Under the pieces are notes generated by a model. It did not search any database. It saw only the letters and a program-made list of their open reading frames with translations, and had not been told where the DNA came from. The position numbers and the translations under genes are program-made. Shown here piece by piece: positions 10,439 through 50,631 of a stretch of 64,000 nt of DNA. How positions within the stretch are numbered: position 1 is the first letter of the stretch; each line of letters begins with the position of its first letter. Origin of the DNA: Microbacterium sp. (GTDB taxonomy: Bacteria; Actinomycetota; Actinomycetes; Actinomycetales; Microbacteriaceae); contig NZ_JBQCIP010000061.1 in NCBI RefSeq assembly GCF_051953575.1, positions 2,808 through 66,807 on the forward strand, written 5' to 3'.

Positions 10439-10511
10439 GGCCCCATCGTTTAGCGGCCTAGGACGCCGCCCTTTCACGGCGGTAGCACGGGTTCGAATCC
10501 CGTTGGGGTCA
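10439..10511 (+). tRNA. tRNA-Glu (anticodon UUC)
   Basis: Acceptor GGCCCCA/TGGGGTC, anticodon loop cctTTCac, T-arm gggttcgaatccc. Confidence 0.9.
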
Positions 10512-10532
10512 CGCCCACAACTAAATAAGCAT

Positions 10533-10606
10533 GGCCCTGTAGCGCAGTTGGTTAGCGTGCCGCCCTGTCACGGCGGAGGTCGCGGGTTCAAGTCCCGTCA
10601 GGGTCG
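10533..10606 (+). tRNA. tRNA-Asp (anticodon GUC)
   Basis: Acceptor GGCCCTG/CAGGGTC, anticodon loop cctGTCac, T-arm gggttcaagtccc. Confidence 0.9.
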
Positions 10607-10678
10607 CTCCGAGCGACGGGCCCTTTTCTTGAAGAGGGCCTTTCGTCTAGGAAGCGGCAGATCTTGTATGTGCCGCTC

Positions 10679-10751
10679 GGCTCTGTAGCTCAGTTGGTAG
10701 AGCGTTCGACTGAAAATCGAAAGGTCACCGGATCGATGCCGGTCGGAGCCA
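10679..10751 (+). tRNA. tRNA-Phe (anticodon GAA)
   Basis: Acceptor GGCTCTG/CGGAGCC, D-loop agctcagttggtagagc, anticodon loop actGAAaa, T-arm cggatcgatgccg. Confidence 0.9.
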
Positions 10752-36975: not shown

Positions 36976-37208
36976 GCGCGGAGGAAGGACTCGTCGAAGT
37001 ACAGCGTCCAGAGCCGCACAGTCGGTGCCGGGCGTACTGAGCACCACATGCCGGCCCCGAGGGTCATCGCGGAGCCCGGCGTCAGCTCGTGGATGCCGGT
37101 GGCGGTATCGACCTGCGCGGCACCCTCGAGGACGTGGACGATCTTAGCGTGCCCGAACACGGCGCGGTGGATGCGCTCACCGGAGGGTCGCGAAGTGACT
37201 CGCCGCAT
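36960..37208 (-). pseudogene. possible N-terminal (cupin/AraC_binding) fragment of an AraC-family regulator, lacking the HTH domain
   Basis: ERIHRAVFGHAKIVHVLEGAAQVDTATGIHELTPGSAMTLGAGMWCSVRP...LWTLYFDESFLRAHMRWVL. The reading frame then degenerates and no AraC HTH follows. Confidence 0.3.
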
Positions 37209-38054
37209 CCGCGACGCGGTTGTTGTACTCGACGGAGGGGTTGTAGGCACCGATCGCGGCGATCCAGTTCGCCGAGACGGTCAGGTCGCCGCCGACGTCA
37301 CACAGGTGGATCGCGGCAGCCAGGGCCGCGTCGTCGATCTGATTGATGTCGGTCTTGCCGTCCCGGTTTCCGTCCTGGCCGACCGCTTCCCACGTGGAAG
37401 GGATGAACTGCATGGGGCCGACTGCGCGGTCCCAGACGGCGTCACCGTCGATACGCCCCTGGTCGGTGTCGGGAACGGGGTTCGTCCCGTTCCCATCCAG
37501 CGGGATGCCGATGATCGCCGGAGCAACGGTGCCGTCGGGGCGGAGGGTCGCACCGGTCATGCTGCCATGCTCGGACTCGACGAAGCCGATCGCGGCGAGG
37601 GTGTTCCAGCCGATGCCGCAACCGGGGTGCGTCTCGTTGGCGGCGAGGGCGGCACCGGCGTAGGCGGCCAGCGCCCGCTCGGGGATGTTCCCGGCCTTCG
37701 CGATCCGCGTGACCCAGGCGGGGTGGGCGCGTTCGGCCACGGGCCGATCAGCGGCCGCGAGGGTGCCGAGGGTGGCCTGGGCGGGGGTGGGCTGCACGCG
37801 GATCGGGGTCCGGCTCGGCGTCGGGGTCGGGGTGGACGTCGCCGCCGTCGTGGTCGCGTCGGCGGGCGGCGGGGTGAGCGCCGCCGCCGCGAGCGCGCCG
37901 ACACCGAGCACCGCTAGGACGATCGTCGCGGCCGGCAGGGCCCACCGCCGCCACGCGGACGGCCGCGCTGACTCGACCGGGCTGTCGGTGACGGGAGTCT
38001 CGATTATCGCGTCGAAGGAGTCGCGTCGGCGGGATGCGGGGGTCGGGTCGGTCA
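37177..38054 (-). CDS. membrane-anchored lytic transglycosylase (SLT_2/MltB-like)
   Basis: ORF trimmed to MTDPTPASRR.... One TM helix, a T/P-rich linker, and GWNTLAAIGFVESEHGS and GPMQFIPSTWE motifs. Confidence 0.85.
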
Positions 38055-39002
38055 TCAGAGGGCTCCGGTGTTCACAGGTTCGAGGTCGGGCTCGGGTTCG
38101 GGCTCGGGCTCGGCGGCAGGAGGGGCCGCCTCGACGGCGCGGTCGCGGGTGCGCCGCCGCCAGGTCTTCGCGATGAGGCCCTGCCGGGGGGCGAAGAACC
38201 AGGCGAGCAGGAACGCAGCGGTCAGGACGAGGACGATCGTGCCGCCGGTCGGGAAGTCCCACGACCAGGAGATGTAGAGGCCGACGAGGGCCGAGACGCC
38301 GCCGATGATCGGGGCGAGCAGCATCATGATCCCGAGCCGGTCGGTCAGCAGCCGGGCGGTCGCCGCCGGCGTGATGAGCAGCGCGAGCACGAGGATGTTG
38401 CCGATGGTCTGCACGCTGATGACGACGGCGAGGGTGACCAGGACGTAGAGCACGAGGTCGAGCCAGAACACCTTCACGCCCATCGCGCGCGCGGACTCCC
38501 GGTCGAGAGAGATGGTGACGAACTCCTTGTGCAGGGCGAAGATCACCGCGAGTACGAGCACCCCGGTCCCACCGACGACGTAGAGATCGGAGTCGGGGAT
38601 GCCTGTGATCGAGCCGAACAGGAATTGCTGCAAGGAGCCGGCGTAGCCGGGGGCTTGGGAGATGACGACGATGCCGAGGGCGAACGCGGCGACGAAAAAG
38701 ACCCCGATGATGGAGTCCTCCTTCAGCCTGCGGTTCTGCGAGAACACCGCGACGAGAACGGCGGTGAGGATGCCGGCGATGGTGCCGCCGATCACGAGGT
38801 TGCCGCCGACGACGAACGCGACCGCCAGACCGGGGAAGACGGCGTGGGCGACGGCATCGCCGATGAAGGCCATGCCGCGCAGCACGACGAAGGTGCCGAC
38901 GACGCCGCAGACGAGGGAGGACATGACCGCGACGGCGAGCGCCTTCGGGAGGAACGCGAGGTCGGGGTTGAGCAGGTCGGTGAGGAAGTCGATCGGGTTC
39001 AT
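38055..39002 (-). CDS. metal (cluster-9, ZnuB/MntC/TroD-type) ABC transporter permease, anchored-repeat type
   Basis: 315 aa with 8-9 TM helices and ABC-3 family features. 4-nt overlap with the ATPase gene. The C-terminal tail is acidic and Pro-rich (EPEPEPEPDLEP). Confidence 0.9.
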   Translation of the reverse strand: MNPIDFLTDLLNPDLAFLPKALAVAVMSSLVCGVVGTFVVLRGMAFIGDAVAHAVFPGLAVAFVVGGNLVIGGTIAGILTAVLVAVFSQNRRLKEDSIIGVFFVAAFALGIVVISQAPGYAGSLQQFLFGSITGIPDSDLYVVGGTGVLVLAVIFALHKEFVTISLDRESARAMGVKVFWLDLVLYVLVTLAVVISVQTIGNILVLALLITPAATARLLTDRLGIMMLLAPIIGGVSALVGLYISWSWDFPTGGTIVLVLTAAFLLAWFFAPRQGLIAKTWRRRTRDRAVEAAPPAAEPEPEPEPDLEPVNTGAL

Positions 39003-39772
39003 GCAGTCACGCGCCGTTCAGGAGATGTGGCAGCCAGGATGCGCAGCAGGGCGGAGTCGGCGCCGACGCCGAACGTGGTCATCCACAAGGCGGGGTCGGC
39101 GGCGAGCTGGGCGGGTGTGCCCGTGGCGATGATCGTGCGGTTCAGCAGCGCGATCCGGTCGCAGCCGTCCAGCGCCGACAGCAGGTCGTGGGTCGTCATC
39201 AGCACGGCGCGGCCCTCGCGGGCGAGGTCGGCGAACAGCACGGACAGTAGCTCCTGGGTGGGCATGTCCAGGCCGGTGAACGGCTCATCGAGTAGCAGCA
39301 CCGCGGGCTGCGCGGCGAGCGCGCGGGCGACGAGCACCCGCTGGCGCTGACCTCCGGAGAGCTGCCCCACGGGGCGATCCGCGAGGTCCGTCATGCGCAC
39401 CCGCTCCAGCGCATCCGCGACGGCCTCCCATTGAGCGACGCCAGGCCGGCGGAACATCCCGAGCCGCCCAGTCAGGCCGGTCATGACGACGTTCGCGACC
39501 GAGATTGGGAACTCCCAGGCGAACTCGTGCCGCTGCGGGACGTACCCGATCGGGGTGCGGCCGGGCTTGGAGACGCGGCCCTCGACCAGCACGCGGCCGG
39601 TACTCGGGGCGAGCACTCCGAGGACGGTGCGCAGCAGGGTCGTCTTCCCGGCTCCGTTCGGGCCGATCAGTCCGACGAGCTCGCCGCGGTCGACGGCCAT
39701 GTCCGTGCCGGTGAGGACGAGCCGGCCGCCGAGCTCGACGGACACGTTCTCGATCACGAGCGCCGCGGTCAT
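38999..39772 (-). CDS. metal ABC transporter ATP-binding protein (ZnuC/MntB-type), anchored-repeat type
   Basis: Walker A GPNGAGKTT, signature LSGGQRQRV, Walker B LLLDEP. Confidence 0.92.
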   Translation of the reverse strand: MTAALVIENVSVELGGRLVLTGTDMAVDRGELVGLIGPNGAGKTTLLRTVLGVLAPSTGRVLVEGRVSKPGRTPIGYVPQRHEFAWEFPISVANVVMTGLTGRLGMFRRPGVAQWEAVADALERVRMTDLADRPVGQLSGGQRQRVLVARALAAQPAVLLLDEPFTGLDMPTQELLSVLFADLAREGRAVLMTTHDLLSALDGCDRIALLNRTIIATGTPAQLAADPALWMTTFGVGADSALLRILAATSPERRVTA

Positions 39773-40815
39773 CGCGCGTCCTCGGATACCCGATCGAGGA
39801 CGAGGTCGCTGTCCTGGGTGCGGGCGGCGAGCGCGCGCCGCTTAGCGCGGTTGCCGCGCACGATCACGACGACCACGCCGGCGACCAGGGCGACCGCGAC
39901 CAGGGCGATCGCGCCGATCAGGATGGGCACGAGCGGGTCGCCGGCCGGCTCCGGGGCGGCGGTCGCCGGCTCGTCCAGCGTCACGTCCTCCGCATCCGCG
40001 CCCTCGCCGGGGGCCGGGGCGGCAGCGCCGTCCCAGCTCGCGGCGAGCGCGTCGGCCGGGGCGGTCGCGGTGCCGACGGCGAACCGGATGACTTGCGTGT
40101 CGGAGACGGTCGAGCCGTCCACGAGGTGAGCGGTCGCCTCGAGCTGAAGCAGGTAGATGCCAGGCTCGGTGAACACCCAGTTCGCGTGCGTGTGCGTGTT
40201 CACGTCGACCCATATCGGCTGCGCGTCGGGCAGGCGGGAGTCCCACAGCAGTTGCGGCTCCCCGAACGACCCCGACTGGAGGTAGGTCGTCACGACCCCC
40301 GGCCCCTGCGCGCCGGTGAGCGACAGGGTGACACCGCGGTCGATCGTCTGCATCACCTCCGGGTCTTGCGTGTTCCAGCCCAGCCACACGACCTCGGGGT
40401 TCTGCGTCTGCGGCACGACCCACACCGGCTCGCCGGGGTCCGCGCCGACGAAGGCGTAGGCCGGATCATCCGGGACGGACAGCTGCGCCTGGTCGAGGAC
40501 GTGGAAGACGGTCTCGTCGGGGTAGCGCCACACGCTCGCCGCGTTCGCGTCGGCCTTGGCGACGTCATCGTGGATGAGGAACGTCCACTCGCCGTCGACG
40601 AACTTCGGCCCCATGTCGACGTGCCCGGCATCCAACGTCCGCTCGCCGTGGACGACCGCGAGGTTCGCGTCGAGGGTCTGATCGAGGTTCGGGTCGTCGT
40701 CACCGTCCTCGGCGAACGCGGCGGTCGGCGCGGCCAGCAACATGAGGGCGAGGGCGGCGATCCCGGCGCGCATGGCGCCGGCGGCTCGCCTGCGGGGTCG
40801 GGTGAGGGTCGTCAT
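39769..40815 (-). CDS. ABC-transporter-associated surface repeat protein (one full module, C-terminal TM anchor)
   Basis: Signal peptide, then AGHVDMGPKF...VPQTQNPEVVWLGWNT...THTHANWVFTEPGIYLLQLEA...IRFAVG, then a TM helix LVPILIGAIALVAVALVAGVVVVIV and a basic tail. Expected TIGR03769/TIGR03773-type family. Confidence 0.85.
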   Translation of the reverse strand: MTTLTRPRRRAAGAMRAGIAALALMLLAAPTAAFAEDGDDDPNLDQTLDANLAVVHGERTLDAGHVDMGPKFVDGEWTFLIHDDVAKADANAASVWRYPDETVFHVLDQAQLSVPDDPAYAFVGADPGEPVWVVPQTQNPEVVWLGWNTQDPEVMQTIDRGVTLSLTGAQGPGVVTTYLQSGSFGEPQLLWDSRLPDAQPIWVDVNTHTHANWVFTEPGIYLLQLEATAHLVDGSTVSDTQVIRFAVGTATAPADALAASWDGAAAPAPGEGADAEDVTLDEPATAAPEPAGDPLVPILIGAIALVAVALVAGVVVVIVRGNRAKRRALAARTQDSDLVLDRVSEDAR

Positions 40816-40881
40816 CGGGGACTGCTTTCTCTCTCATCGGTTCGGTCATGGGGTCGCCCTGCCGGGCGAGCTGGAGTGCGC

Positions 40882-42450
40882 TCATCCGCTGAGACAATCG
40901 CGGAGGGAGTCGGCGTTGAACCGCATCATGTCGACGTAGCTCGGCACCCGGTCGTCCAGCGCATCGCCATAGATCAGGCACACCTGGACGTGCTGCTCGG
41001 CGGCGAGCTCGGTGAGCACGTTCGCGCGGGCGATGTGGTTCGGTTCGAGGAACACCGCCGGGATGCGCAGCGTCCGCAGCGTCTCCGACAGCTTCCGGCG
41101 ATCCGCCAGCGATGGCTCCGCCGCTGGGTTCGGGGTCACGAATCCGGCGATCTGCATGTCGTAGGCGTGGGCGAGGTAGCCGAAGGCGTCGTGCGTCGTG
41201 ATGAGGTAGCGGTTCGCCTCGGGGATCGTCGCGATCTGCTCGCGCACGTAGTCGTCCACGTCCTCCAGCTCGGCGAGGTAGGCGGCGGCGTTCGCCGTGT
41301 AGTCGCGGGCACCTTCGGGGTCGGCGCTGATCAGGGTGTCGCGGATGAGCAGCACGTAGGCCATGCCGTTGCGGACGTCCTGCCACAGGTGCGGGTCGAT
41401 CTCGCCGTGGACGTGCTTGCCGAGCACGGCCTGCGGCAGCTGGTAGACCTGCGTGCCCGCGCGGCCGAGGAAGGAGAACTGCGACCCGGCTGGGATCTCC
41501 GACAGCGCCTTGGACGGCACGTCGATCACGACCTCCTCCGGGGCGTAGGAGACCTGCGTGTGCTCCCCGCCGCCCTCCGGGTCGTACCGGACCTCCAGCG
41601 CCCCGTCCTCGAGGTTGGCCGTCAGGTCCGCGTGCCCCTGGTTCAGCACCACCGCGTCCGGCATCCCCGCGTCGGCGGGGTTGACGCCGACTGCGAAGGT
41701 GAACGTCGCCTGCCCGAGCTCTTGCGGGCGCGAGGTGTCGTCGACCTGCACGCGGGCGTCGAGCGTGACGGTGTAGATGCCGGGCTCGGTGAATGTCCAC
41801 GACAGGTGCGTGTGCGCGTCGGCCGGCAGGGACATGGTGTCGTCCTTGTAGCCGTTGCTCGCGTCGAACCCGTTGGACGAGTCGAAGTACACGTCCGTGT
41901 CGCCGAACGTGCCCGTCAGGTACGCGAACACGTCGCCCGGCCCGGTGACCTCGGTGGCCGACAGCAGCACCTCGGAGGTGCGGGTCGCGCCGTAGCGGGC
42001 GGCGCCGTCGCCGTGCGCACGCAGACCGAGCCACACCGTGTCGAGGTTGACGTTCTCCACCAGCGGGATGATCTCCGCGGCGTACTTCACCGCTTCCTCT
42101 GCGAGGGAGACGTTCACCGCGCCGGCCTGCAGGTTGGAGTCGAGAGTCTTGATGACGTTGTGCTCCTCCAGCAGCGCATAGTTGGAGAAAGCGACGTCCG
42201 CGTACACGACGTTGCGGGCATCCCGCAGCGTCGGCTCGTAGATGTGCGGGTCCGCGCCGTCCGGCACGATTGAGGCGACGTCCACCCGGTCGCCGCCGAC
42301 GTTCTGCACGAGATCGCGCAGCAGCCCTGTCGTCGTGATGACCTGCAGCCGGTCGGTCTCGGCCGACAGCAGCGGCTTGCTCGCGCATCCGGTCAGCGTC
42401 AGCACCGTCGCGGCGAGCGCGGCCGTGGCGGCGAACATGCGGCGGCTCAT
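40882..42450 (-). CDS. anchored-repeat-type cluster-9 metal ABC substrate-binding lipoprotein with about 210-aa repeat-module insertion
   Basis: Lipobox LTLTGC. TroA/ZnuA ligand motifs DPHIYEP (aa 67-73) and DPHLWQD (aa 352-358) are separated by about 285 aa rather than about 70. TTHDAFGYL is present. The insertion carries HTHLSWTFTEPGIYTV. Confidence 0.9.
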   Translation of the reverse strand: MSRRMFAATAALAATVLTLTGCASKPLLSAETDRLQVITTTGLLRDLVQNVGGDRVDVASIVPDGADPHIYEPTLRDARNVVYADVAFSNYALLEEHNVIKTLDSNLQAGAVNVSLAEEAVKYAAEIIPLVENVNLDTVWLGLRAHGDGAARYGATRTSEVLLSATEVTGPGDVFAYLTGTFGDTDVYFDSSNGFDASNGYKDDTMSLPADAHTHLSWTFTEPGIYTVTLDARVQVDDTSRPQELGQATFTFAVGVNPADAGMPDAVVLNQGHADLTANLEDGALEVRYDPEGGGEHTQVSYAPEEVVIDVPSKALSEIPAGSQFSFLGRAGTQVYQLPQAVLGKHVHGEIDPHLWQDVRNGMAYVLLIRDTLISADPEGARDYTANAAAYLAELEDVDDYVREQIATIPEANRYLITTHDAFGYLAHAYDMQIAGFVTPNPAAEPSLADRRKLSETLRTLRIPAVFLEPNHIARANVLTELAAEQHVQVCLIYGDALDDRVPSYVDMMRFNADSLRDCLSG

Positions 42451-42937
42451 GCGACGGCCTCCGCCTGCCGGACGATGCCGATCCGTTCGTCTGGGTCGAC
42501 CAAGTGCAGGCCGGCGTCACGCAGCCCCGGCTCCAGCAGGGTCGCCAGGCGCGCGAACGTCTCCTGCCGCCCGGTTGCGGTGAGGTGGCCGAGCCTGTTC
42601 GCACAGACGAACCCGGCGACCGGCCCGGTCAGCTCGTCGAGGATGTCCGGGGCGGCGCCGGCGAGCACGCTCACCTGGTCGATCAGTTCGGGGTCGTCGG
42701 CGACACGGGCCAGCAGCACTGCCCGCATCGTCAGCGACGGCTCGATCGCGACCACCTGGGCGCCGTGGACCGAGCGAGCAGCCGTGTGCCGATCCCGGTG
42801 CCGGCGCCGACGTCGAGGACGGTCGCGTTCGGGTCGAGGTCGGCGAAGGCCGATGCCAGGGCGGGCCGCAGCCCACCCCAGACATCGGTCATGAACAGGT
42901 CATGGAACTCGCCCATGCCCTCGTATGCGTCGATCAC
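42447..42937 (-). pseudogene. class I SAM-dependent methyltransferase split by a 1-nt frameshift
   Basis: ORFs 42731..42970 (…VLDVGAGTGIGTRLLA) and 42447..42755 (VVAIEPSLTMRAVLL…) are the two halves of one MTase. The frames join as LLAR/VHGAQVVAIEPS if one G is added near 42770. GTGA overlap with the giant gene's stop and ATGA overlap with the SBP start. Confidence 0.7.
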
Positions 42938-45900
42938 GCCGGAAGGCCGCCCCTCCGTCGCCGCCACCACAGCACCCCCGTACCCGCAGCGCCCCCGATC
43001 AGGAGCGCGCCGAGGATCGACAGCAGCAGCGGGACCGGGTTGCCGGTCGCGAGCGCGGTGAACGGGTCAGTGATCCCGCCGCCGGGAACCGGGGTGCCCT
43101 GGCCGGGCAGCAGGTCACGGGCCGCAGCCGCCGCAGCCGCCGCGGCCTGATCGGCGGACAGCCTCGTTCCGTCATCGTCGGTCAGCACCGCGTTGGAAAT
43201 GGTGCCGCAGCCCGATCCCGAGCCCGCCGCCGACGCCGGGTCCACATTCCCGACCACGATCGTCAGGGTCTCCGTGTCGGAGGAGACCTGCCCGTTCGCG
43301 AGGGTCGCGGTCTGCGTCGTGCTGATCCGGTAGACGCCCTCGGCGGAGAACGCCCAGTTCGCGTGGGCGTGAACGCCGAGCGGGATGCTGTAGCTGCCGC
43401 CGTTGTTGAACACCATCGACTGCACGCCGCCGAACGAGCCGGACAGGTAGACGCGCAGCGCGCCGGGGCCGTCGATCGAGTTGATCGTCCAGGTGACAGG
43501 CCCGCGGGTGTTGGCGGCGTTCAGTGCCTCGGTCGACCAGCCCAGCCAGATCAGGTCCGGGTTCTGCGTCTGCGGCACCTGCCACACGCTCGACCCGGCC
43601 GCCCCCACCTGCCCATAGCCGGACGGGAGGGTGACACGGCTGGACGGCTTGAGCCACAAGATCGTACCGCCCGGCTCCCGGTAGACCTTCGCGCCGGACG
43701 TGTCGTCACCGATCAGCGATTCAAGCTTGCCGCCCACGATGCGGGAGCCGTAGTCGATGTGACCGGACGACAAAATCGTCGCCCCTGCGACGCACTGTGT
43801 CGCAGACACCTGGACCGCTCCCGGGGCGTCGCCGCCCGGGACAGATCCCGGAGGCGATGGTGTGGTAGGCGCGCGGACGATGGACAGGGAGTCCCAGCCG
43901 AGGAGGTCTCCCCCGGCGGTCTTCACCACCAGTCGATGACCACCCGTCGTCGCACCCGCCGGCAAGCGGACCTGGACCGCGCCCGACTGGCCGACCTGCG
44001 CCCAACCGAGCCAGTGCGGGGTGGAGTGCAACCACACCGACACCCAGGAGCCAGCACGATCCCGGTCGAGCTGTGCAGTCAGCAGCTGACCCGGGATGAA
44101 TCCGTTCTCCCCGCCCAGAACGCTCACCGTGCCTGCGGTCGCGTCCGTGAGCTCCTCATCCGGGACGGGGGTGCGGTCGTCATCGGCAGGGTGCCCCGGG
44201 GCGGCGGTGAAGCAGGCGGCGGGGTCGACCTTGCGCACGTCGACGGCGCCGACCGCAACGGCAAGAGTGAAGCTATCGCTCACTGGTTTGCCGGAGCTGA
44301 GGGTCGTTGCGCGCTCGAAGGCGAGACAATAGACGCCTTCGGCGCTGAACGCCCAAGTCCCATGGGCGTGGGTGTGCTTGGGAATTGCGGATGTGTCGGC
44401 GGCGGTGATGCCGTCCCGGGTGTTGAACATCACGCTGGGTTCGCCGAACACCCCTGTCTGGAACAGGGCGAATTCGCCCGGCCCGCTGCTGTCGACGAGC
44501 GACCAGCGGAATGCGTCTCGCGTGGCGTCATCCGCGATCGCCTCCGTGGACCAGCCCGGCCAAAGCAGCGCGTCGTCCTGGGTTTCGGGGAGGATCCACG
44601 TGGCAGAACCGGCGGCCCCGAGGAACGCATACTCGGGGAGATCGGGAACGCTCGTCCGCGCGGCCGGCTTCGCCTGCAGCACGGTCTTCGCCGGGTCGCG
44701 CCAGACAGGCTCGCTACTTTCGGTGGTGTCCTTGATGCGCGTGCCGAAAACGTCGCCGTTCAGAACGGATGCGACGTCGACGTGACCGAGGCCGAGGATC
44801 GTCGCCCCGGAAGCGGTCTTCGTACCGTTCGGCACATCCCATTCCACGGGCTCCGGCTCCCCAGGGCCTTCCCCTCCGGGATCCGTGCCCTCCCCTCCTT
44901 CCGCGCAAGGAGTGACGGTGGCGGGATCCTCGACCCCGACCGCGTAGGTGATCGTCTTCGTGGCTGCGGAGACCGTGCCATCGGCGAGTGTCGCGGACCA
45001 GGTCAACGGAACACAGTAGATCCCGGGCAGGGAGAACGACGGCTGATTGGCGAAGATGAACTGCGGCCACAGCGTGACACTGCGCGACTCGCCGGCGCGG
45101 GTGCCGAACGATCGGTTCTTGTAGTAGTCGAAGCTGACTGTTCCCGGCCCGTCGACCTCCCCCACACGGATGGTTGCGTCTCCCCGGATGTCGCCCCGCG
45201 GGAGATACTCACCGGAGTGAGTGAACTCCACGCCCTGCCAGGAGGGGATGCGCCAGCCGTCGCCCTGGTCGATGAAGCCGCCTATCACGACGGACTCCGG
45301 GTCGTGCCAGCTCGTCGCCCACGGGTGGGTAACGACTTTGGTCGCGACATCGAGCCCGTCCGGGCTCAACACCGGAGCGAACTGGACGCGGTCGCCCGCG
45401 GAGGGCACCAGTCCCTCGTCGCTGAGACCATCGAGATCGATAGGGGCGAGCTCGGAAACAGGACCATCAGGATGGGTCCGTGCGCAGGGCTGCACGGTGT
45501 GCAGGTCGACCGAGTCGCCGATCGCGATCGTGAGCTGGTCACGCACGACCTCGTCCGTCCCGGTCGCGGCGTCGCGGGCGCGGACCTCGAAGTTCAGGCA
45601 ATACACGCCCTCCTTCGTGAACGCCCATTCCAGATGCTGGTGACTCGTCGGACCGATGAACGATGCCGGCAGCGCGGTCGAACTCACATTCCTGTCGGGC
45701 ATGGCGAAGGTGCCCCCTTCGGGACCGGTGTAGCCGAGAAGAGTCCAGGTCGGCTTCCCCTCGGTCAACGCCTGTGGGAGGCTTTCATGCGTCAGACCCG
45801 GCCAGAGCGTCGAGGTCATGAACGCGTTGCTCGCAGAGAACCCGTAGTACGGCGTACCGAGAGGCCCTATCGCGCTGTAGTCTGCTCCGCTCCCAGTGGC

Positions 45901-48162
45901 CGTGTCCGGGACAGTGAAGTCGATGTTCGGTCCGCGGCCGACCCACACCGCATCTGCCACAGTGGGGAATGCACCGGTGTCGTGGACGTCGCCGGTGTGC
46001 AGCTCCAGCTCCCCGTCGACGAGCATGGGTCCGATGTCGAGGTGTCCTTGGTGGAACCAGGTGACGGTCGGATCCAGGTCATCGTAGATGTCCTCATCAC
46101 CGGGATCGGTCGGCCCGTCGCCGCCATGGGACTGGGCGCAGGGCTGGACAGTCGTGGCATCGATGCCGATGGCGAAGGTGAGCGTCGAGTAACCGATCGC
46201 AGGAGCCTCCGCCCCCACGAAGGTGCCTCGAGACTCCACGGTCAGGCAGTAGCGTCCGGGTGCGGTGAACGCCAGCCCCACGATGTTGAATGGGTCAGCG
46301 AACGGGTAGTAGCCGTCTTCGACCCCAGTGGCCCATACTGACCCAGCGCTTCCCTCCTCGCGCGAGTCCCATTGCGCCACGACGCTCGAATCGGTGATCC
46401 AATCGTTGTTCCCCGATGCATAGCTTGCGACGTAGCCTCCTGCCGGGGTCTCGGTGGCCACCAATCGCAGCGAGTACGCGCCGTCCACCAGCTCTTCGGC
46501 GGGGGTGGTGTCGGCCTGCGGCAGCAGAGTCAGGGGAATCCCTGGGTCGGAGAAGGGAGCGTAGGCGGGGCTGCCGGCTGTGCGCCACAGCCGTGTGCCG
46601 GGTGCGGCGATCTGCCCCCAGAGCTTCTGGTTCGTGGCGTCCGTGCCCTCCGCTGGCCAGGCGGCATCCTGTCGCGGCAGCGAGAACACCGTCCTCTGGG
46701 GCGTGAGGGTGGTGGTGCGACCGCCGACCACCCGGTTCAGATCCATCCGCAGGGTGCCGTCATCGGCCGGTACGGGCGAGAGGTGCACGTCGCCGGCTCC
46801 GATCACCGTGACCCCCTGCTCGACGGTCGGGGTGGGCGACGGGTCGTACGACCCGGTCGCAGTGGGCTGGGCGCAGGGGGTCACAGTGGCCGGATCCACA
46901 CCCACCGCGAACGTGAGCGTCGCGCGGTTGTTCGCGATGAGACCCGTTTCCAGGTCGAGCATTTCGCTGTCCAGCGTGAGGCAATAGATTCCGGCAGCGG
47001 TGAACGCGAACCCAGATGCCTCGCTCTCGACCGGGCCCTCGGCGTCCGGCGTCAACGACTGCCGGGGCGACACCGCCCCGATGGCGCCAGAATGCCACCG
47101 ACCAGCCGGATATCCATCATCACCGCGGAAGGTGGTGAACGCACCGCCCTCCGGCGACACCGCCTCGGCGACGCTCATCATCAGCTCGAAGCCGTTTTCC
47201 GCAGACACCCCGTGCGCGTCAGTGCGCAGCAGCAGGTCGTTGCCTGCCGAGGAGTCCGCGGCTGCCTCAGTGCGCCACACATCGCTGTGAGACGGGACCA
47301 GCAGATTCCAGTTCTTCCAGCCCTGCTCCGCGGGCTCGAACCCGGTGCCGGGCCAGGACTCGACGTTCGGCAGCGAGAACACCGTCTCGCCGGGATCGAG
47401 GACCGTGCCGCTCTCATCGATCAGTCGCAGACGCAGATTGCCGTCCTCCCAGCGGTTCGAGATGTCGACAGTGCCCTCGCTCAGCACGTGAACGGGCGGC
47501 ACACCCGCCGGCGCCGCGGCCAGAGCCTGGTCAGGGTGCTCGGTAGCCGGCTCGGAGACGGCTTCCCGATCGTCGGAATCCCGCCCCAGGTCGGGAGAGT
47601 CCTCTGCAGATTCTTCTGCCGTGGTCACGTGGAACCGGTAGGTCGTGTCCGCCGCCGTGGAGGTGGCCTCGGGCTGATCTGGCAGGGCGTAGCGCGTCTC
47701 GGCACCGACCACGAGCTCGTAGTCGCCGGGTACGGTGAAGGCCCAGTCGAGCATCGCCCCCTCCGCGTCGACGTCGAGCGTCTGGGCCTGTCCCTCTGCC
47801 GTCCCCCAGACGCGCGCTCCGCCCGCAGGTGTGGCGTGAACCGCACCGCCCTGCGGGGTCATGACCGAACGCAGCTCGAGTCGCACCCCGCTCAGCGATG
47901 CCCCGGTGGGCAGCCCGGCGGCATCCACCACGACACGCGTGCTGGCTGTGCCTTCGGTCACCGCGAACACAGACTCCACCGAGCCCCGACCATCGGCCGT
48001 GGCGGCCACCAGGGCAGTGCCTTCCGCCGCAACGGCGACGCCCGGCAGCACGGCGCCGTCGAGCAGGATCGGGGTGTCAGCGACAGCGGGCTGTGCCATC
48101 CCCCCGACGAGGGCGACGACCGCGACCAGCGCGAGGAGCAGCTTCAAGGGAGTCTTCTTCAT
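42934..48162 (-). CDS. 1742-aa cell-surface protein with about 7 tandem anchored-repeat modules and a C-terminal sorting-signal-like tail
   Basis: Signal peptide MKKTPLKLLLALVAVVALVGGMAQPAVA. Repeated GHxD...PQTQ..WLGWST...HxHxxWAFxxxGxYC...TxxxAxG units. The C-terminus is TALATGNPVPLLLSILGALLIGGAAGTGVLWWRRRRGG. Confidence 0.9.
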   Translation of the reverse strand: MKKTPLKLLLALVAVVALVGGMAQPAVADTPILLDGAVLPGVAVAAEGTALVAATADGRGSVESVFAVTEGTASTRVVVDAAGLPTGASLSGVRLELRSVMTPQGGAVHATPAGGARVWGTAEGQAQTLDVDAEGAMLDWAFTVPGDYELVVGAETRYALPDQPEATSTAADTTYRFHVTTAEESAEDSPDLGRDSDDREAVSEPATEHPDQALAAAPAGVPPVHVLSEGTVDISNRWEDGNLRLRLIDESGTVLDPGETVFSLPNVESWPGTGFEPAEQGWKNWNLLVPSHSDVWRTEAAADSSAGNDLLLRTDAHGVSAENGFELMMSVAEAVSPEGGAFTTFRGDDGYPAGRWHSGAIGAVSPRQSLTPDAEGPVESEASGFAFTAAGIYCLTLDSEMLDLETGLIANNRATLTFAVGVDPATVTPCAQPTATGSYDPSPTPTVEQGVTVIGAGDVHLSPVPADDGTLRMDLNRVVGGRTTTLTPQRTVFSLPRQDAAWPAEGTDATNQKLWGQIAAPGTRLWRTAGSPAYAPFSDPGIPLTLLPQADTTPAEELVDGAYSLRLVATETPAGGYVASYASGNNDWITDSSVVAQWDSREEGSAGSVWATGVEDGYYPFADPFNIVGLAFTAPGRYCLTVESRGTFVGAEAPAIGYSTLTFAIGIDATTVQPCAQSHGGDGPTDPGDEDIYDDLDPTVTWFHQGHLDIGPMLVDGELELHTGDVHDTGAFPTVADAVWVGRGPNIDFTVPDTATGSGADYSAIGPLGTPYYGFSASNAFMTSTLWPGLTHESLPQALTEGKPTWTLLGYTGPEGGTFAMPDRNVSSTALPASFIGPTSHQHLEWAFTKEGVYCLNFEVRARDAATGTDEVVRDQLTIAIGDSVDLHTVQPCARTHPDGPVSELAPIDLDGLSDEGLVPSAGDRVQFAPVLSPDGLDVATKVVTHPWATSWHDPESVVIGGFIDQGDGWRIPSWQGVEFTHSGEYLPRGDIRGDATIRVGEVDGPGTVSFDYYKNRSFGTRAGESRSVTLWPQFIFANQPSFSLPGIYCVPLTWSATLADGTVSAATKTITYAVGVEDPATVTPCAEGGEGTDPGGEGPGEPEPVEWDVPNGTKTASGATILGLGHVDVASVLNGDVFGTRIKDTTESSEPVWRDPAKTVLQAKPAARTSVPDLPEYAFLGAAGSATWILPETQDDALLWPGWSTEAIADDATRDAFRWSLVDSSGPGEFALFQTGVFGEPSVMFNTRDGITAADTSAIPKHTHAHGTWAFSAEGVYCLAFERATTLSSGKPVSDSFTLAVAVGAVDVRKVDPAACFTAAPGHPADDDRTPVPDEELTDATAGTVSVLGGENGFIPGQLLTAQLDRDRAGSWVSVWLHSTPHWLGWAQVGQSGAVQVRLPAGATTGGHRLVVKTAGGDLLGWDSLSIVRAPTTPSPPGSVPGGDAPGAVQVSATQCVAGATILSSGHIDYGSRIVGGKLESLIGDDTSGAKVYREPGGTILWLKPSSRVTLPSGYGQVGAAGSSVWQVPQTQNPDLIWLGWSTEALNAANTRGPVTWTINSIDGPGALRVYLSGSFGGVQSMVFNNGGSYSIPLGVHAHANWAFSAEGVYRISTTQTATLANGQVSSDTETLTIVVGNVDPASAAGSGSGCGTISNAVLTDDDGTRLSADQAAAAAAAAARDLLPGQGTPVPGGGITDPFTALATGNPVPLLLSILGALLIGGAAGTGVLWWRRRRGGLPA

Positions 48163-48199
48163 CGGGAGGCTTTCAGCAGACAGTGCGGGACAGGAAGCG

Positions 48200-48243
48200 G
48201 GAGCTGCACGCAGCTCCTGGCTCCGCCAGATGGACGGAGCCAG
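48200..48243 (-). terminator. two adjacent hairpins between the small secreted-protein gene and the giant gene (partial terminator or attenuator candidate)
   Basis: ggagctgc-ac-gcagctcc (8 bp) and ctggctccg-N9-cggagccag (9 bp), both perfect. Confidence 0.45.
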
Positions 48244-48268
48244 GAGCGCGTGGTCAGAGGGCAGCCGA

Positions 48269-48904
48269 TTAGAACGTGAAGAGGATGTTGTTCGTCTTGC
48301 CGCCGGGGCCCAGACCCGAGCCCGTCACCTTGACGCCGATCTGCGCCTGCGACGCCGAGGTCGTGAACGTCCACGTGAAGTGCTCGTGGAAGTCCGCCGT
48401 GGCGCCCGCCGGGAGCACGAACGACTCGGTGTTGTCGCCGACGGAAGTGTCGAAGTAGACCGTCGAGGGGTTGGTCGGATCGGTGATCTTCACGTTGGTC
48501 CCCGCGGGAACTCTCGTGAGCTGGACCGTGTAGGTGCGGTTCACGGTGGGGGAAGCGAAGGCATCGTCGATGCGGATGCCGCCACCACCGACCGGGGTGA
48601 TCGAGGTGGCGTCGTCACCGTCGACGACCTTGCCCGAGCCGACGGCGAACCAGCCCGCCGGGGCGTCGACGTCTTTGTAGCTGCCCGCGCCCGAGTGATC
48701 GAAGTTGACGACTTCGAGCGGGGTGTTACTGACGGCGATGAGGTCCCATTCACCGGTCTGCGCCCCGGTGACGACGGTCGCGGCGTTCGCGGCGACCGGC
48801 GCACCGATGCTGAGGGCGACCGCCGCGATTCCAGCGACGACCGATCCGAGAAGGGTCTTGTTCCTGCGGACTGCGCTCTGGCGGTCATGGGTGATGGTGG
48901 ACAT
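48269..48904 (-). CDS. small secreted protein with a single degenerate half-module (FHEHFTWTF)
   Basis: ORF trimmed to MSTITHDRQ..., preceded by AAGGAGA. Signal peptide ends ...APVAANA. The C-terminal LPAGATADFHEHFTWTFTTSASQAQIGVKV resembles the HxHxxWxF core of the repeat family. Confidence 0.8.
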   Translation of the reverse strand: MSTITHDRQSAVRRNKTLLGSVVAGIAAVALSIGAPVAANAATVVTGAQTGEWDLIAVSNTPLEVVNFDHSGAGSYKDVDAPAGWFAVGSGKVVDGDDATSITPVGGGGIRIDDAFASPTVNRTYTVQLTRVPAGTNVKITDPTNPSTVYFDTSVGDNTESFVLPAGATADFHEHFTWTFTTSASQAQIGVKVTGSGLGPGGKTNNILFTF

Positions 48905-49225
48905 GTTCGTTCTCCTTGAGTTGATTGCGTGGATGGATGGCTCGCACGCTCCAGCAGGCGCAGACACGGTCTACGCAAGGGGGGCTCAGACTGCCCTGCT
49001 ACCGGAGCGCGCCCAGCATTCGGTCCGAGTAGATGAACTGCGTCCGCACAAATCCGACGTGCTGGCATCGGACCGGAACCCATATCGCACGTCCGACGCG
49101 TCTCGGCTGGAGGTTCCAGGCCGCGCGCAACAGGACGTCAGGGCCGCAGCCGCAGCGAGGTGCTTCGCCGCGGGCAAGGTGACCCCGGCCATGCATGCGC
49201 CGTGCGTGCATCCTCAGACCTGCGA

Positions 49226-49258
49226 CGCTGTCGCGATTCGAATCGCGAGGCGACAGCG
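49226..49258. promoter_or_regulatory. long hairpin containing a perfect 18-bp palindrome TCGCGATTCGAATCGCGA
   Basis: The palindrome spans 49231-49248. The outer arms cgctg / cgacagcg extend the stem with a 2-nt bulge. Confidence 0.5.
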
Positions 49259-49360
49259 TGGTGACGCGAGCGAGGATTCGTCGGCGACTCCTGACCCGGC
49301 CCATCGCCTACCCCGTTTCTGCCCGCAACCCACGCACGACGTGAACATCGCTATCCATAA

Positions 49361-49377
49361 ATGAGAATGGTTATCAT
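49361..49377. promoter_or_regulatory. Fur-family (Zur-like) box candidate
   Basis: ATGAGAATGGTTATCAT has 6 of 8 palindromic pairs. The inner 15-mer matches TGAAAATGATTTTCA at 12 of 15 positions. It sits in a local AT-rich island (ccataaatgagaatggttatcattacc). Confidence 0.5.
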
Positions 49378-49739
49378 TACCACCGTCCGTATCTTGGCGG
49401 CTCGGTGGACCGTCTGTCAAATTGATGACGACTGGAGATGAGTCCGCGACACTCGAATCAGAGGGAGTGGACCGAGCCGGATGGGCAGGTGGGGCGAGGC
49501 TGCCTTCTGCCTGAGATTCAGAAAGCTGACGCGCGGCGGCTGAGGTGAGGCTGGTTCTTGGCCGTGCGCCCCTCGCCACACCGGTCGACGTTCAGGTGCG
49601 TGCCCCTCTCGTGCGTTGCTCCGCGCCGACGCTCCGTTGGCGATCACTCGACGTCGCCGCCTCGGATCCTGCTCATGGGTGCGCGTGCTCACGCACCCGG
49701 TCAGCCGGCCTTCGGTCGGCCGACTGAGCCGGCATGACG

Positions 49740-49773
49740 AAGGGGACGTGCCGCCGAAGCGGGACGCCCCCTT
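49740..49773 (-). terminator. terminator hairpin downstream of the His-rich mini-gene
   Basis: On the minus strand, AAGGGGGCGTCCCGC-UUCG-GCGGCACGUCCCCUU pairs at 13 of 15 positions with a UUCG loop, 18 nt after the stop. A second imperfect hairpin lies at 49697-49732. Confidence 0.55.
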
Positions 49774-49790
49774 GCGCGGACGAGCGCCGG

Positions 49791-49946
49791 TCAGTGCTCG
49801 TCGTAGTGGTCGGCGTGGGCGGCGTGCTTGTGCCCGTCATGCACGTAGTCGAAGTGATCGCCGTGCTCGACGGCCTCGTGGCCGCAATCGGCGCCGTGCG
49901 CGTGCTCCGCCAGGCTGTGCTCGGCATGGGTGTCGGTGGTGGTCAT
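49791..49946 (-). CDS. 51-aa histidine-rich small protein (candidate metal-binding protein or metallochaperone)
   Basis: MTTTDTHAEHSLAEHAHGADCGHEAVEHGDHFDYVHDGHKHAAHADHYDEH has 14 His, 1 Cys and 13 Asp+Glu in 51 residues. GGAAGGAACAGACAGC precedes the ATG. Confidence 0.65.
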   Translation of the reverse strand: MTTTDTHAEHSLAEHAHGADCGHEAVEHGDHFDYVHDGHKHAAHADHYDEH

Positions 49947-49971
49947 GCTGTCTGTTCCTTCCGTGATGAAT

Positions 49972-49992
49972 CCGCAGCCGCGTCGGCTGCGG
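49972..49992 (-). terminator. hairpin between the XRE-cupin regulator gene and the His-rich gene
   Basis: ccgcagccg-cgt-cggctgcgg, a perfect 9-bp stem. Confidence 0.45.
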
Positions 49993-50055
49993 CGGGCTCT
50001 AGGACGTGCGCGACGGCGTCGGCGATGACGTGCGACACGTGCACGCCGAAGCGGC

Positions 50056-50631
50056 TCAGAAGGTGCTGCTCTGCCCGTCCATCGACAGCTGCGGGATCGT
50101 CGTGCACACGAAGACCGTCGCCTGAGGTGTGATCGCCTCGAACAGATGCGGCGCATCCGCCGGGAAGCGCAGAAAGTCTCCCGCCTGCGCCATCACCGGG
50201 GCCGAGGCCGGGCCGATGCGCACCCGGCCCTCGAGCACGAGGCAGTGTCGCAGGGCTCCCCGGCCCTGCGGCTTGCGCGTCGATGGGCCGCGGTTGGCCT
50301 CGAGGCGCAGCACGCTGTTCGTGACGTATCCCGAGCCGAACGCGTGGTCGAGCTGACGCACCTGCAGCGTGCCGTCATCCCGCCACGGGACGGCGTCGCG
50401 CCATTGGACGAGCACCTCGTTGCCCAACTCGCTCACGAGCGCGCGGATGCTGACGCCGAGCGCAGAGGCGAGCCGCTCGATCGTGTCGACGGTGGGGTTC
50501 CCTTCGCCGGACTCGATGCTCGCGACGGTCTGCTTCGACAGTCCCGCCCGCCGTCCAATCTCGGCGAGCGACAGGCGGCGGTCCTCGCGGAAGCGGCGGA
50601 GGTTCCGCGCGACCATGTCGTTCGCATCCAT
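50056..50631 (-). CDS. XRE-family HTH + cupin-domain transcriptional regulator
   Basis: ORF trimmed to MDANDMVARNLRRFREDRRLSLAEIGRRAGLSKQTVASIESGEGNPTVDTIERLASAL, with a C-terminal cupin segment (GDFLRFPADAPHLFEA). Confidence 0.88.
   Translation of the reverse strand: MDANDMVARNLRRFREDRRLSLAEIGRRAGLSKQTVASIESGEGNPTVDTIERLASALGVSIRALVSELGNEVLVQWRDAVPWRDDGTLQVRQLDHAFGSGYVTNSVLRLEANRGPSTRKPQGRGALRHCLVLEGRVRIGPASAPVMAQAGDFLRFPADAPHLFEAITPQATVFVCTTIPQLSMDGQSSTF

Follow-up and report, generated by a model that had tools for sequence, protein, structure and literature searches.

The gene examined here occupies positions 42934-48162 on the minus strand of a 64,000-nucleotide stretch of Microbacterium sp. 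DNA (assembly GCF_051953575.1, contig NZ_JBQCIP010000061.1, positions 2,808 to 66,807; hereafter the window, in whose numbering positions are given), and encodes a giant surface protein of seven homologous modules, three with a histidine site and four without one, in an order that is conserved among its orthologues. Rather than a new kind of protein, it is a large representative of an established family of envelope proteins that bind zinc. It is probably a Sec-exported, ZnuF-type envelope protein, encoded by the first large gene of a zinc-starvation operon likely to be repressed by Zur, that captures and relays zinc and has been lengthened by histidine-less extension modules. An earlier note on this DNA, made from the letters alone, had drawn attention to the uneven distribution of histidine motifs; that observation is real and the pattern is conserved, in a protein whose kind and probable function are already known. 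The family identity, the zinc ABC operon, the candidate Zur box and the published ZnuF work had escaped that note.

The open reading frame (ORF) is uninterrupted, its product is 1742 aa long, and the DNA has a G+C content of about 70%; every peptide quoted in the earlier note was found in its place in the translation. A scan with NCBIfam profiles gave the whole protein 526.2 bits for TIGR03773 (cut-off 190.3; E 1e-157), with the best stretch at residues 1149-1738, spanning model positions 11-516 of 516. The portion that matches is the C-terminal 590 residues, comprising the sixth module, an immunoglobulin-like (Ig-like) insert, the seventh module and the tail. The models NF038134 (choice-of-anchor M; 395.7 bits, cut-off 55) and TIGR03769 (181.1 bits, cut-off 30.9) each match four stretches. 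The name of the TIGR03773 model gives no assigned function, and its typical members have 600-1000 aa and two to three histidine modules, whereas the protein described here has 1742 aa and seven modules. The NCBI record of an 84% relative already bears the TIGR03773-family name. The nearest genomes are those of Microbacterium azadirachtae DSM 23848 (90% in the best-matching segment) and then Microbacterium sp. B2969 (84%), and the only other record of the identical protein is on a 13.5-kb Logan contig. Family members are common in Actinomycetota, with 304 relatives confirmed by tblastn in a scan of GTDB species-representative genomes. No Pfam model matched the giant protein, its first module or the Ig-like insert, and a sequence search of the PDB with the giant protein returned no match at E up to 1.

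Module boundaries were set with a hidden Markov model (HMM) seeded with the three obvious modules and the neighbouring small protein and iterated on the giant protein and 14 homologues. This model found seven homologous beta modules (M1 to M7 from the N-terminus; Table 1), including those in the N-terminal half, in agreement with the earlier count of about seven. NF038134 shows just four stretches, and the divergent modules were picked up only by the HMM iterated on orthologues; for genome annotation this means that the curated domain model under-counts modules in such proteins. In AlphaFold2 models built with orthologue alignments, each module is a beta domain, with a predicted local distance difference test (pLDDT) value of 88.6 and a predicted template-modelling (pTM) score of 0.79 for residues 1110-1742 and a pLDDT of 74.6 for residues 1-1115. 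The HMM covers residues 930-1089 of M5, and the AlphaFold2 model and the GDRV motif push its boundary to about residue 918; M5 as a mere half module was ruled out, as the N-terminal hairpin (strands 925-945) is present in the model. The Ig-like segment that had been proposed between M6 and M7 appears as a confident seven-strand beta unit. PF16640 bacterial Ig-like domains are carried by homologues, and the copy in the giant protein has no Pfam score.

The histidine sites follow a fixed pattern. M4, M6 and M7 have G-H-x-D near their start and H-x-H-x-x-W-x-F about 130-140 residues on, and M1, M2, M3 and M5 have neither; writing H for a histidine-bearing module and a dash for a histidine-less one, the protein reads ---H-HH, the same state, module by module, as first reported. 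The accompanying wording, that the motifs are kept only in the C-terminal modules, is right in that the N-terminal M1-M3 are histidine-less but loose in that M4 lies mid-protein; the real order is an alternation, -H-HH, with extra histidine-less modules ahead. When 11 full-length orthologues (41-84% identity) are aligned, H707, D709, H841, H843, H1127, D1129, H1265, H1267, H1468, D1470, H1598 and H1600 are invariant, and all orthologues of similar length keep the order ---H-HH. Longer relatives have the M2-M3 pair or M6 duplicated with the order unchanged (for example -----H-HHH and ---H-HHH). Histidines retained at random positions, the outcome that the earlier note had set against its own proposal, were not seen, the pattern being the same or extended by duplication in the 11 orthologues and in GTDB species representatives. 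Across 135 family proteins and 77 loci from these representatives, the last module is histidine-positive in nearly all full-length proteins, and histidine-less modules are N-terminal or alternate with histidine-bearing ones (-HH, -H-HH, -H-H and -H).

The two halves of the site stand or fall together, since HxD and HxH are both present in 282 of the 328 modules aligned at both ends, both absent from 38 and separated in just 8. In histidine-bearing modules ten residues are at least 88% conserved, namely the H and D of the first motif, the Q of PxTQ, the W, W, T and E of W-x-G-W-x-T-E, the two H of the second motif and the W of W-x-F; M4 has a variant site without the PxTQ loop. Each of these ten is retained in only 0-26% of histidine-less modules, and core residues (G8, L21, P-G, F, G, Y, V-G, P) are retained in 76-100% of them, indicating that in these modules the metal site was lost as one block and the scaffold retained. 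The histidine-less modules also evolve faster than M6 and M7, with all-pairs identities of 0.30 for M1 and 0.43-0.46 for M2, M3 and M5, as compared to 0.54 for M4, 0.62 for M6 and 0.71 for M7, the most conserved module.

These modules have many invariant residues of their own in the 11 orthologues, and one alternative is that they form a diverged binding domain for some other ligand, such as a metallophore, a wall polymer or a host or plant molecule, making the protein bifunctional. This fits the invariant module order and the invariant own residues, which include W270-P271-G272, W285, R297 and D315 in M2 and W502-P503, W515, R527-T528 and W598-D599 in M3, as well as the duplication of the M2-M3 pair as a unit in longer homologues and the recurrence of the "-H" pair, a histidine-less module followed by a histidine-bearing one, as a unit that extends to Streptomyces. 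Their faster evolution (0.43-0.46 against 0.62-0.71 for M6 and M7) argues the other way, as does the rarity of the type: a query with M2-M3 had 29 matches among 1.84 billion representative proteins, almost all of them giant proteins of like kind, which makes the M2-M3 module type a narrow innovation, and no Pfam family or Foldseek fold match hints at a ligand. We regard a bifunctional protein of this sort as unlikely. The earlier note had offered spacers or diverged binders as the role of the distal modules; these are indeed homologous, histidine-less N-terminal modules with the fold core and cysteines kept and a faster rate of change, which fits either role. In the zinc-relay reading preferred here, M1-M3 and M5 would be folded scaffold copies with a replaced metal site that most likely lengthen the protein through or above the wall, although a new binding function may also have arisen in them.

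The 12 cysteines of the giant protein are all invariant in the 11 orthologues and form six pairs. Five lie within M2-M6 at spacings of 36-38 residues (394/430, 639/675, 855/893, 1050/1086 and 1279/1317), so the paired cysteines first reported for these modules are present and invariant, but at this spacing rather than about 45 residues. M7 had been described as lacking the first cysteine, and the GxYC cysteine is indeed replaced by R there, but its own invariant flanking pair, C1457/C1652, had been overlooked. Family-wide, the GxYC cysteine has a partner 25-50 residues downstream in 151 of 152 modules, histidine-bearing and histidine-less alike. The natural reading of these pairs is as disulfides, which would staple the histidine-less modules other than the cysteine-less M1; exported actinobacterial proteins are oxidised by MdbA/DsbA-type enzymes.

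The genomic setting ties the giant protein to zinc import. Genes for an anchored-repeat ATP-binding cassette (ABC) transporter, comprising a binding protein, an ATPase and a permease, lie downstream on the same strand and all score above the curated cut-offs. The order giant protein, binding protein, small protein, ATPase, permease recurs in more than 55 of the 77 loci, in many actinobacterial orders. The binding protein holds the HxD/HxH module in two halves of reversed order, the HxH half at residues 137-260 and the HxD half at 265-341, an arrangement equivalent to a circular permutation set into the ZnuA fold (residues ~130-341). Given that the binding protein and the ZnuE-like small protein bear the same site as the giant protein, a relay is proposed in which M4, M6 and M7 would bind Zn(II) outside the membrane through the HxD...HxH site, and the zinc would then pass to the ZnuE-like protein and the binding protein, or be kept for them, before import by the ABC transporter. 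A homologue of the SLT-like protein follows the permease gene in about 45 of the 77 loci, and an enzyme of wall remodelling linked to the operon could be relevant to the route by which sortase-less proteins come into the wall.

Between the giant and binding-protein genes, at 42447-42970 (minus strand), lie the remains of a class I methyltransferase-like gene, broken into fragments of 79 and 102 aa in different frames with an internal deletion. The same two fragments are found on the Logan contig (L001), making a reading error in the window improbable, and M. azadirachtae has an intact 249-aa methyltransferase-like gene at the same place (L003, 12689-13438) that overlaps both neighbours.

An alternative to the relay is that the giant protein serves chiefly to sequester or store zinc at the surface, whether as a buffer, as a reservoir or to withhold it from competitors, without feeding the importer. 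In Corynebacterium diphtheriae, a transporter mutant regained growth when znuF and znuG were deleted, while their over-expression was detrimental to growth in low zinc, and the authors of that study proposed sequestration or storage (PMC12445094); the three sites on the giant protein would suit such a role. The tight and wide linkage of the giant gene to importer genes does not favour it, and the shared site on the binding protein and the ZnuE-like protein suggests a relay. Sequestration as the main role is therefore a possibility that we hold to be on the improbable side, and the two roles are compatible.

It is also conceivable, if improbable, that the system handles Mn, Fe, Ni or Cu instead of zinc. 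The binding protein scores on the MntC (Mn) and EfaA (Mn/Fe) families, below their cut-offs, the Corynebacterium glutamicum Zur bound DNA in vitro with Mn too (PMC2823685), and many multicopper oxidases appear in the Foldseek list at TM <=0.2. Against this, the box upstream (see below) is of the Zur type and not of the DtxR/IdeR or MntR type, the counterpart system in C. diphtheriae is under zinc and Zur regulation (PMC6711530) and sustains growth when zinc is low (PMC12445094), and the top matches outside the family are AztC, AztA, AztB and Znu.

The tail of the giant protein lies within the TIGR03773 match, which extends to residue 1738, and carries the conserved consensus (D)PF(T/S)AL..G(N/D)PVPLLL..LG.LLL.GA.G.G.LWWRRR. 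Conservation of this kind would be unusual for a plain membrane anchor. Within it, ALATG had been put forward as a variant sorting motif, and covalent anchoring to peptidoglycan by a sortase, of class E or otherwise, cutting there would accord with the resemblance of motif, hydrophobic helix and basic tail to a cell-wall sorting signal and with the genuine LAxTG or LPxTG of distant family members. This was not borne out by comparison. ALATG matches neither LPxTG nor LAxTG, and its Thr1706 is missing from every orthologue examined, where A, Q, E or S stands instead (ALAAG in M. azadirachtae, the closest, and then ALSQG, ALAEG, AFSEG, AFAAG and ALASG). Of the 107 tails in the family that contain a hydrophobic stretch, 38 belong to the VPxLL (PVPLLL) type and 34 to the L[PA]xTG type, and none has both; these mutually exclusive tail types are the "choice of anchor". 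The TLxTC sortase signature was absent from the six-frame translation of the whole window, and in C. diphtheriae ZnuF is found in the wall without any of the six sortases (PMC12445094). ALATG was accordingly rejected as a sortase motif and is taken as coincidental, and sortase anchoring at this site has hardly any likelihood. The tail would instead be a membrane anchor or the sorting signal of another route.

The Streptomyces counterparts (L065-L078) are short, with two modules, histidine-less then histidine-bearing, and tails with MASTG or MAHTG before the helix, which are LAxTG-like with Met in first place.

In the zinc-relay reading, the tail (PVPLLL, transmembrane helix, WWRRR) would hold the giant protein without a sortase, and a C-terminal anchor would place the two most conserved histidine modules nearest the membrane and the transporter. 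A bolder version takes the conserved tail as a dedicated signal for a sortase-independent route into the actinobacterial wall, perhaps via the SLT-like enzyme, whose gene is coupled in translation to that of the permease, and at the same time the histidine-less modules as a new binding domain. Such a route is proposed since the ZnuF experiments call for one; taken as a whole, this combination seems quite doubtful. The comparison does part the coincidental ALATG from a truly conserved tail motif and in this way narrows the search for the localisation signal.

Control by Zur is predicted from a candidate operator upstream. The sequence TAATGATAACCATTCTCATTT is the sole match in the window to the actinobacterial Zur core (0.05 expected) and is identical at 18 of 21 positions to the C. 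glutamicum cg0042 Zur operator TAATGATAACGGTTATCATTT, which was validated by band shift (PMC2823685). In alignment, the box is an island of identity amid divergent DNA. Across 1.68 Mb of fetched loci, 30 copies of its core, TGAnAAnnnTTnTCA, are present, 23 of them within 3 kb upstream of the homologous gene; the distance to the ORF start is 15-41 nt in L034, L038 and L039, and in L041 the core overlaps the start. Between the box and the giant gene lies a gene for a 211-aa secreted protein, which is conserved ahead of the giant gene in 11 related loci. The product had no Pfam or NCBIfam match, and a weak alignment (6 bits) links its C-terminus (FHEHFTWTFT) to the HxHxxWxF end, in the C-terminal half of the module, suggesting that the operon may encode here another small protein that binds zinc. 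The perfect inverted repeat in the gap before the giant gene could be a terminator, an attenuator or a stabiliser that sets the ratio of small to giant product. Rfam gave no RNA family for the 450-nt stretch between the box and the 211-aa gene, and the roughly 390-450 nt ahead of the next start codon (48968-49358, minus strand) have no convincing ORF; they may serve as a long leader or contain a small gene that was not recognised. A terminator scan gave results at chance level. The product of the 51-aa ORF just upstream of the box may be a small metal-binding peptide.

Several points weigh against the assignment to a Zur-controlled zinc relay of the ZnuF type. A distance of 1.2 kb separates the Zur box from the giant gene downstream, and the intervening gene and hairpin make co-transcription of the giant gene from this box uncertain; a sigma-70 promoter scan of 37000-50200 found none. 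Foldseek searches of the PDB with both multi-domain models returned generic beta-sandwich arrays only (adhesins, complement and multicopper oxidases, TM <=0.2), which are not counted as evidence for kinship of fold. The assignment as a ZnuF counterpart rests on the family names of neighbouring genes, motif and architecture. In C. diphtheriae itself, ZnuF and ZnuG acted as modulators or sequesterers and not as clear uptake factors, and the His-to-Ala mutants still shifted with zinc, leaving binding by the motif unproven even there (PMC12445094).

Table 1 Features of the giant protein and its surroundings (window positions; residues are those of the protein concerned)
Feature	Positions	Strand	Evidence
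Giant gene, TIGR03773-family (ZnuF-type) transporter-associated surface protein	42934..48162	-	ORF, translation, family profile scores
Sec-type signal peptide, residues 1-28 (predicted cleavage between MKKTPLKLLLALVAVVALVGGMAQPAVA and D)	48079..48162	-	Read from sequence; cleavage site inferred; pLDDT <50
M1, residues ~31-182, shortened, histidine-less, cysteine-less; MLDWAFTVPGDYE replaces HxHxxWAFxxxGxY	47617..48072	-	HMM E 3.8e-13; folded beta domain in AlphaFold2
M2, residues 222-433, histidine-less (EGTVD; ASGFAF), Cys 394/430	46864..47499	-	HMM E 7.5e-56; motif table; invariant Cys
M3, residues 449-678, histidine-less (GDVH; GLAF), Cys 639/675	46129..46818	-	HMM E 1.1e-50; motif table; invariant Cys
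M4, residues 698-896, histidine-bearing (H707-x-D709 ... H841-x-H843), Cys 855/893	45475..46071	-	HMM E 5e-57; residues invariant in 11 orthologues
M5, residues ~918-1089, histidine-less (GDRV; NQPSF), Cys 1050/1086	44896..45411	-	HMM E 8e-33, C-terminal part; N-terminal hairpin in model
M6, residues 1118-1318, histidine-bearing (H1127-x-D1129 ... H1265-x-H1267; PETQ, WSTE), Cys 1279/1317	44209..44811	-	HMM E 1e-70; pLDDT >90; residues invariant
Ig-like seven-strand insert between M6 and M7, residues ~1347-1428	43879..44124	-	AlphaFold2 strands, local residues 238-319, pLDDT >90
M7, residues 1459-1648, histidine-bearing (H1468-x-D1470 ... H1598-x-H1600; PQTQ), flanked by C1457/C1652	43219..43788	-	HMM E 4e-66; all-pairs identity 0.71
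C-terminal tail, residues 1649-1742: C1652, Ala-rich helix, LPG, DPFTALATGNPVPLLL, transmembrane helix, WWRRRRGG	42937..43218	-	Sequence; helices in AlphaFold2 model
Anchored-repeat ABC substrate-binding lipoprotein, ZnuA/TroA type	40882..42450	-	TIGR03772 740 bits (cut-off 350); Pfam ZnuA; lipobox LTGC
Small single-module choice-of-anchor M protein, ZnuE-like	39769..40815	-	NF038134 202 bits; GHVD ... HTHANWVF; C-terminal transmembrane helix and basic tail
Anchored-repeat-type ABC ATPase	38999..39772	-	TIGR03771 349 bits (cut-off 269)
Anchored-repeat-type ABC permease	38055..39002	-	TIGR03770 472 bits (cut-off 297)
SLT-like membrane-anchored protein, 292 aa	37177..38055	-	Weak SLT/lytic transglycosylase match; start overlaps permease stop codon
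Perfect long inverted repeat CTCCTGGCTCCG...CGGAGCCAGGAG (extended)	48208..48252	-	In 106-nt gap before giant gene; -49 kcal/mol, z = -4.6, no U tract
211-aa secreted protein gene, between Zur box and giant gene	48269..48904	-	ORF; ends in HEHFTWTF motif
Candidate Zur operator TAATGATAACCATTCTCATTT, 21 bp	49359..49379	-	Match to validated operator; recurs upstream of homologues
51-aa His/Asp/Glu-rich ORF MTTTDTHAEHSLAEHAHGADCGHEAVEHGDHFDYVHDGHKHAAHADHYDEH, just upstream of Zur box	49791..49946	-	Called as gene on Logan contig; no Pfam or NCBIfam match

Beyond these features, a gene for an XRE-type helix-turn-helix regulator with a cupin-like C-terminal half (50056..50631, minus strand) lies upstream of the His-rich ORF, and a cluster of three tRNA genes is present at 10439-10751 on the plus strand.

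The closest described system is that of C. diphtheriae, in which dip0438, dip0440 and dip0441 (anchored-repeat binding protein, ATPase and permease), together with dip0439, dip0442 and dip0443, are zinc-repressed through Zur (PMC6711530). Peng, Lyman and Schmitt in 2025 renamed the proteins ZnuA, ZnuE, ZnuC, ZnuB, ZnuF and ZnuG, and defined there the HxD/HxH motif as bracketing about 150 residues, with the motif residues clustering in AlphaFold models (PMC12445094). In that study ZnuE, ZnuF and ZnuG showed zinc-dependent thermal shifts, and His-to-Ala changes altered growth phenotypes (PMC12445094). The study left two questions, why there are several motif domains and how the sortase-less class reaches the wall; its authors call the meaning of multiple motifs unclear, compare the proteins with streptococcal Pht, and make no mention of histidine-less modules, cysteines or curated family models (PMC12445094). 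What the present analysis adds is the positionally conserved ---H-HH, the block loss of site residues and the rarity of the M2-M3 type, modest details alongside the paired cysteines and the clarified tail. The giant protein and its orthologues nevertheless form a natural series, with site-bearing and site-less copies of one scaffold in fixed order; the site-less copies are built-in negative controls for zinc-binding assays, and the series tests whether length, as reach through the wall, matters.

The comparison with Pht is one of functional analogy only, as drawn by the authors of PMC12445094. The streptococcal polyhistidine triad proteins PhtA/B/D/E, which are compared together with AdcAII, are likewise surface proteins with several histidine-based zinc sites; they are co-regulated with a zinc ABC binding protein, are localised without a sortase and have been proposed to deliver zinc to that binding protein. 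However, the Pht motif (HxxHxH) and fold are unrelated, with no sequence similarity, Pht proteins lack a C-terminal transmembrane anchor, and HxxHxH is absent from the giant protein sequence. Nearer relatives are CmrA, CmrA2 and ZnuG of C. diphtheriae, which have the same HxD/HxH domain in 1-3 copies and are Zur-repressed; these carry LPxTG or LAxTG and depend on SrtF, whereas the tail of the giant protein is of the class that lacks a sortase motif.

The closest likeness is to ZnuF (DIP0442), with its two motifs, transmembrane helix and basic tail and no sortase signal, which reaches the wall independently of all six sortases (PMC12445094). The giant protein shares with it a signal peptide, tandem HxD/HxH domains (~130-150 residues), a transmembrane helix with a positive tail and the lack of a sortase motif. 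Taking two or more HxD...HxH domains as the mark of the ZnuF type, the giant protein has three, all of them invariant. The two gene clusters also share anchored-repeat ZnuA, ZnuC and ZnuB and a one-motif ZnuE, and the motif of the binding protein is in reverse order in both, as reported for C. diphtheriae ZnuA (PMC12445094). Control by zinc and Zur has been shown in C. diphtheriae, whereas here it is predicted from the box, and the surface-protein gene stands ahead of the transporter genes in one direction here but after them, in a second operon, in C. diphtheriae. Finally, ZnuF has two motifs and no silent modules have been described in it, in contrast to the giant protein with its seven modules, four of them histidine-less, its Ig-like insert and its paired cysteines.

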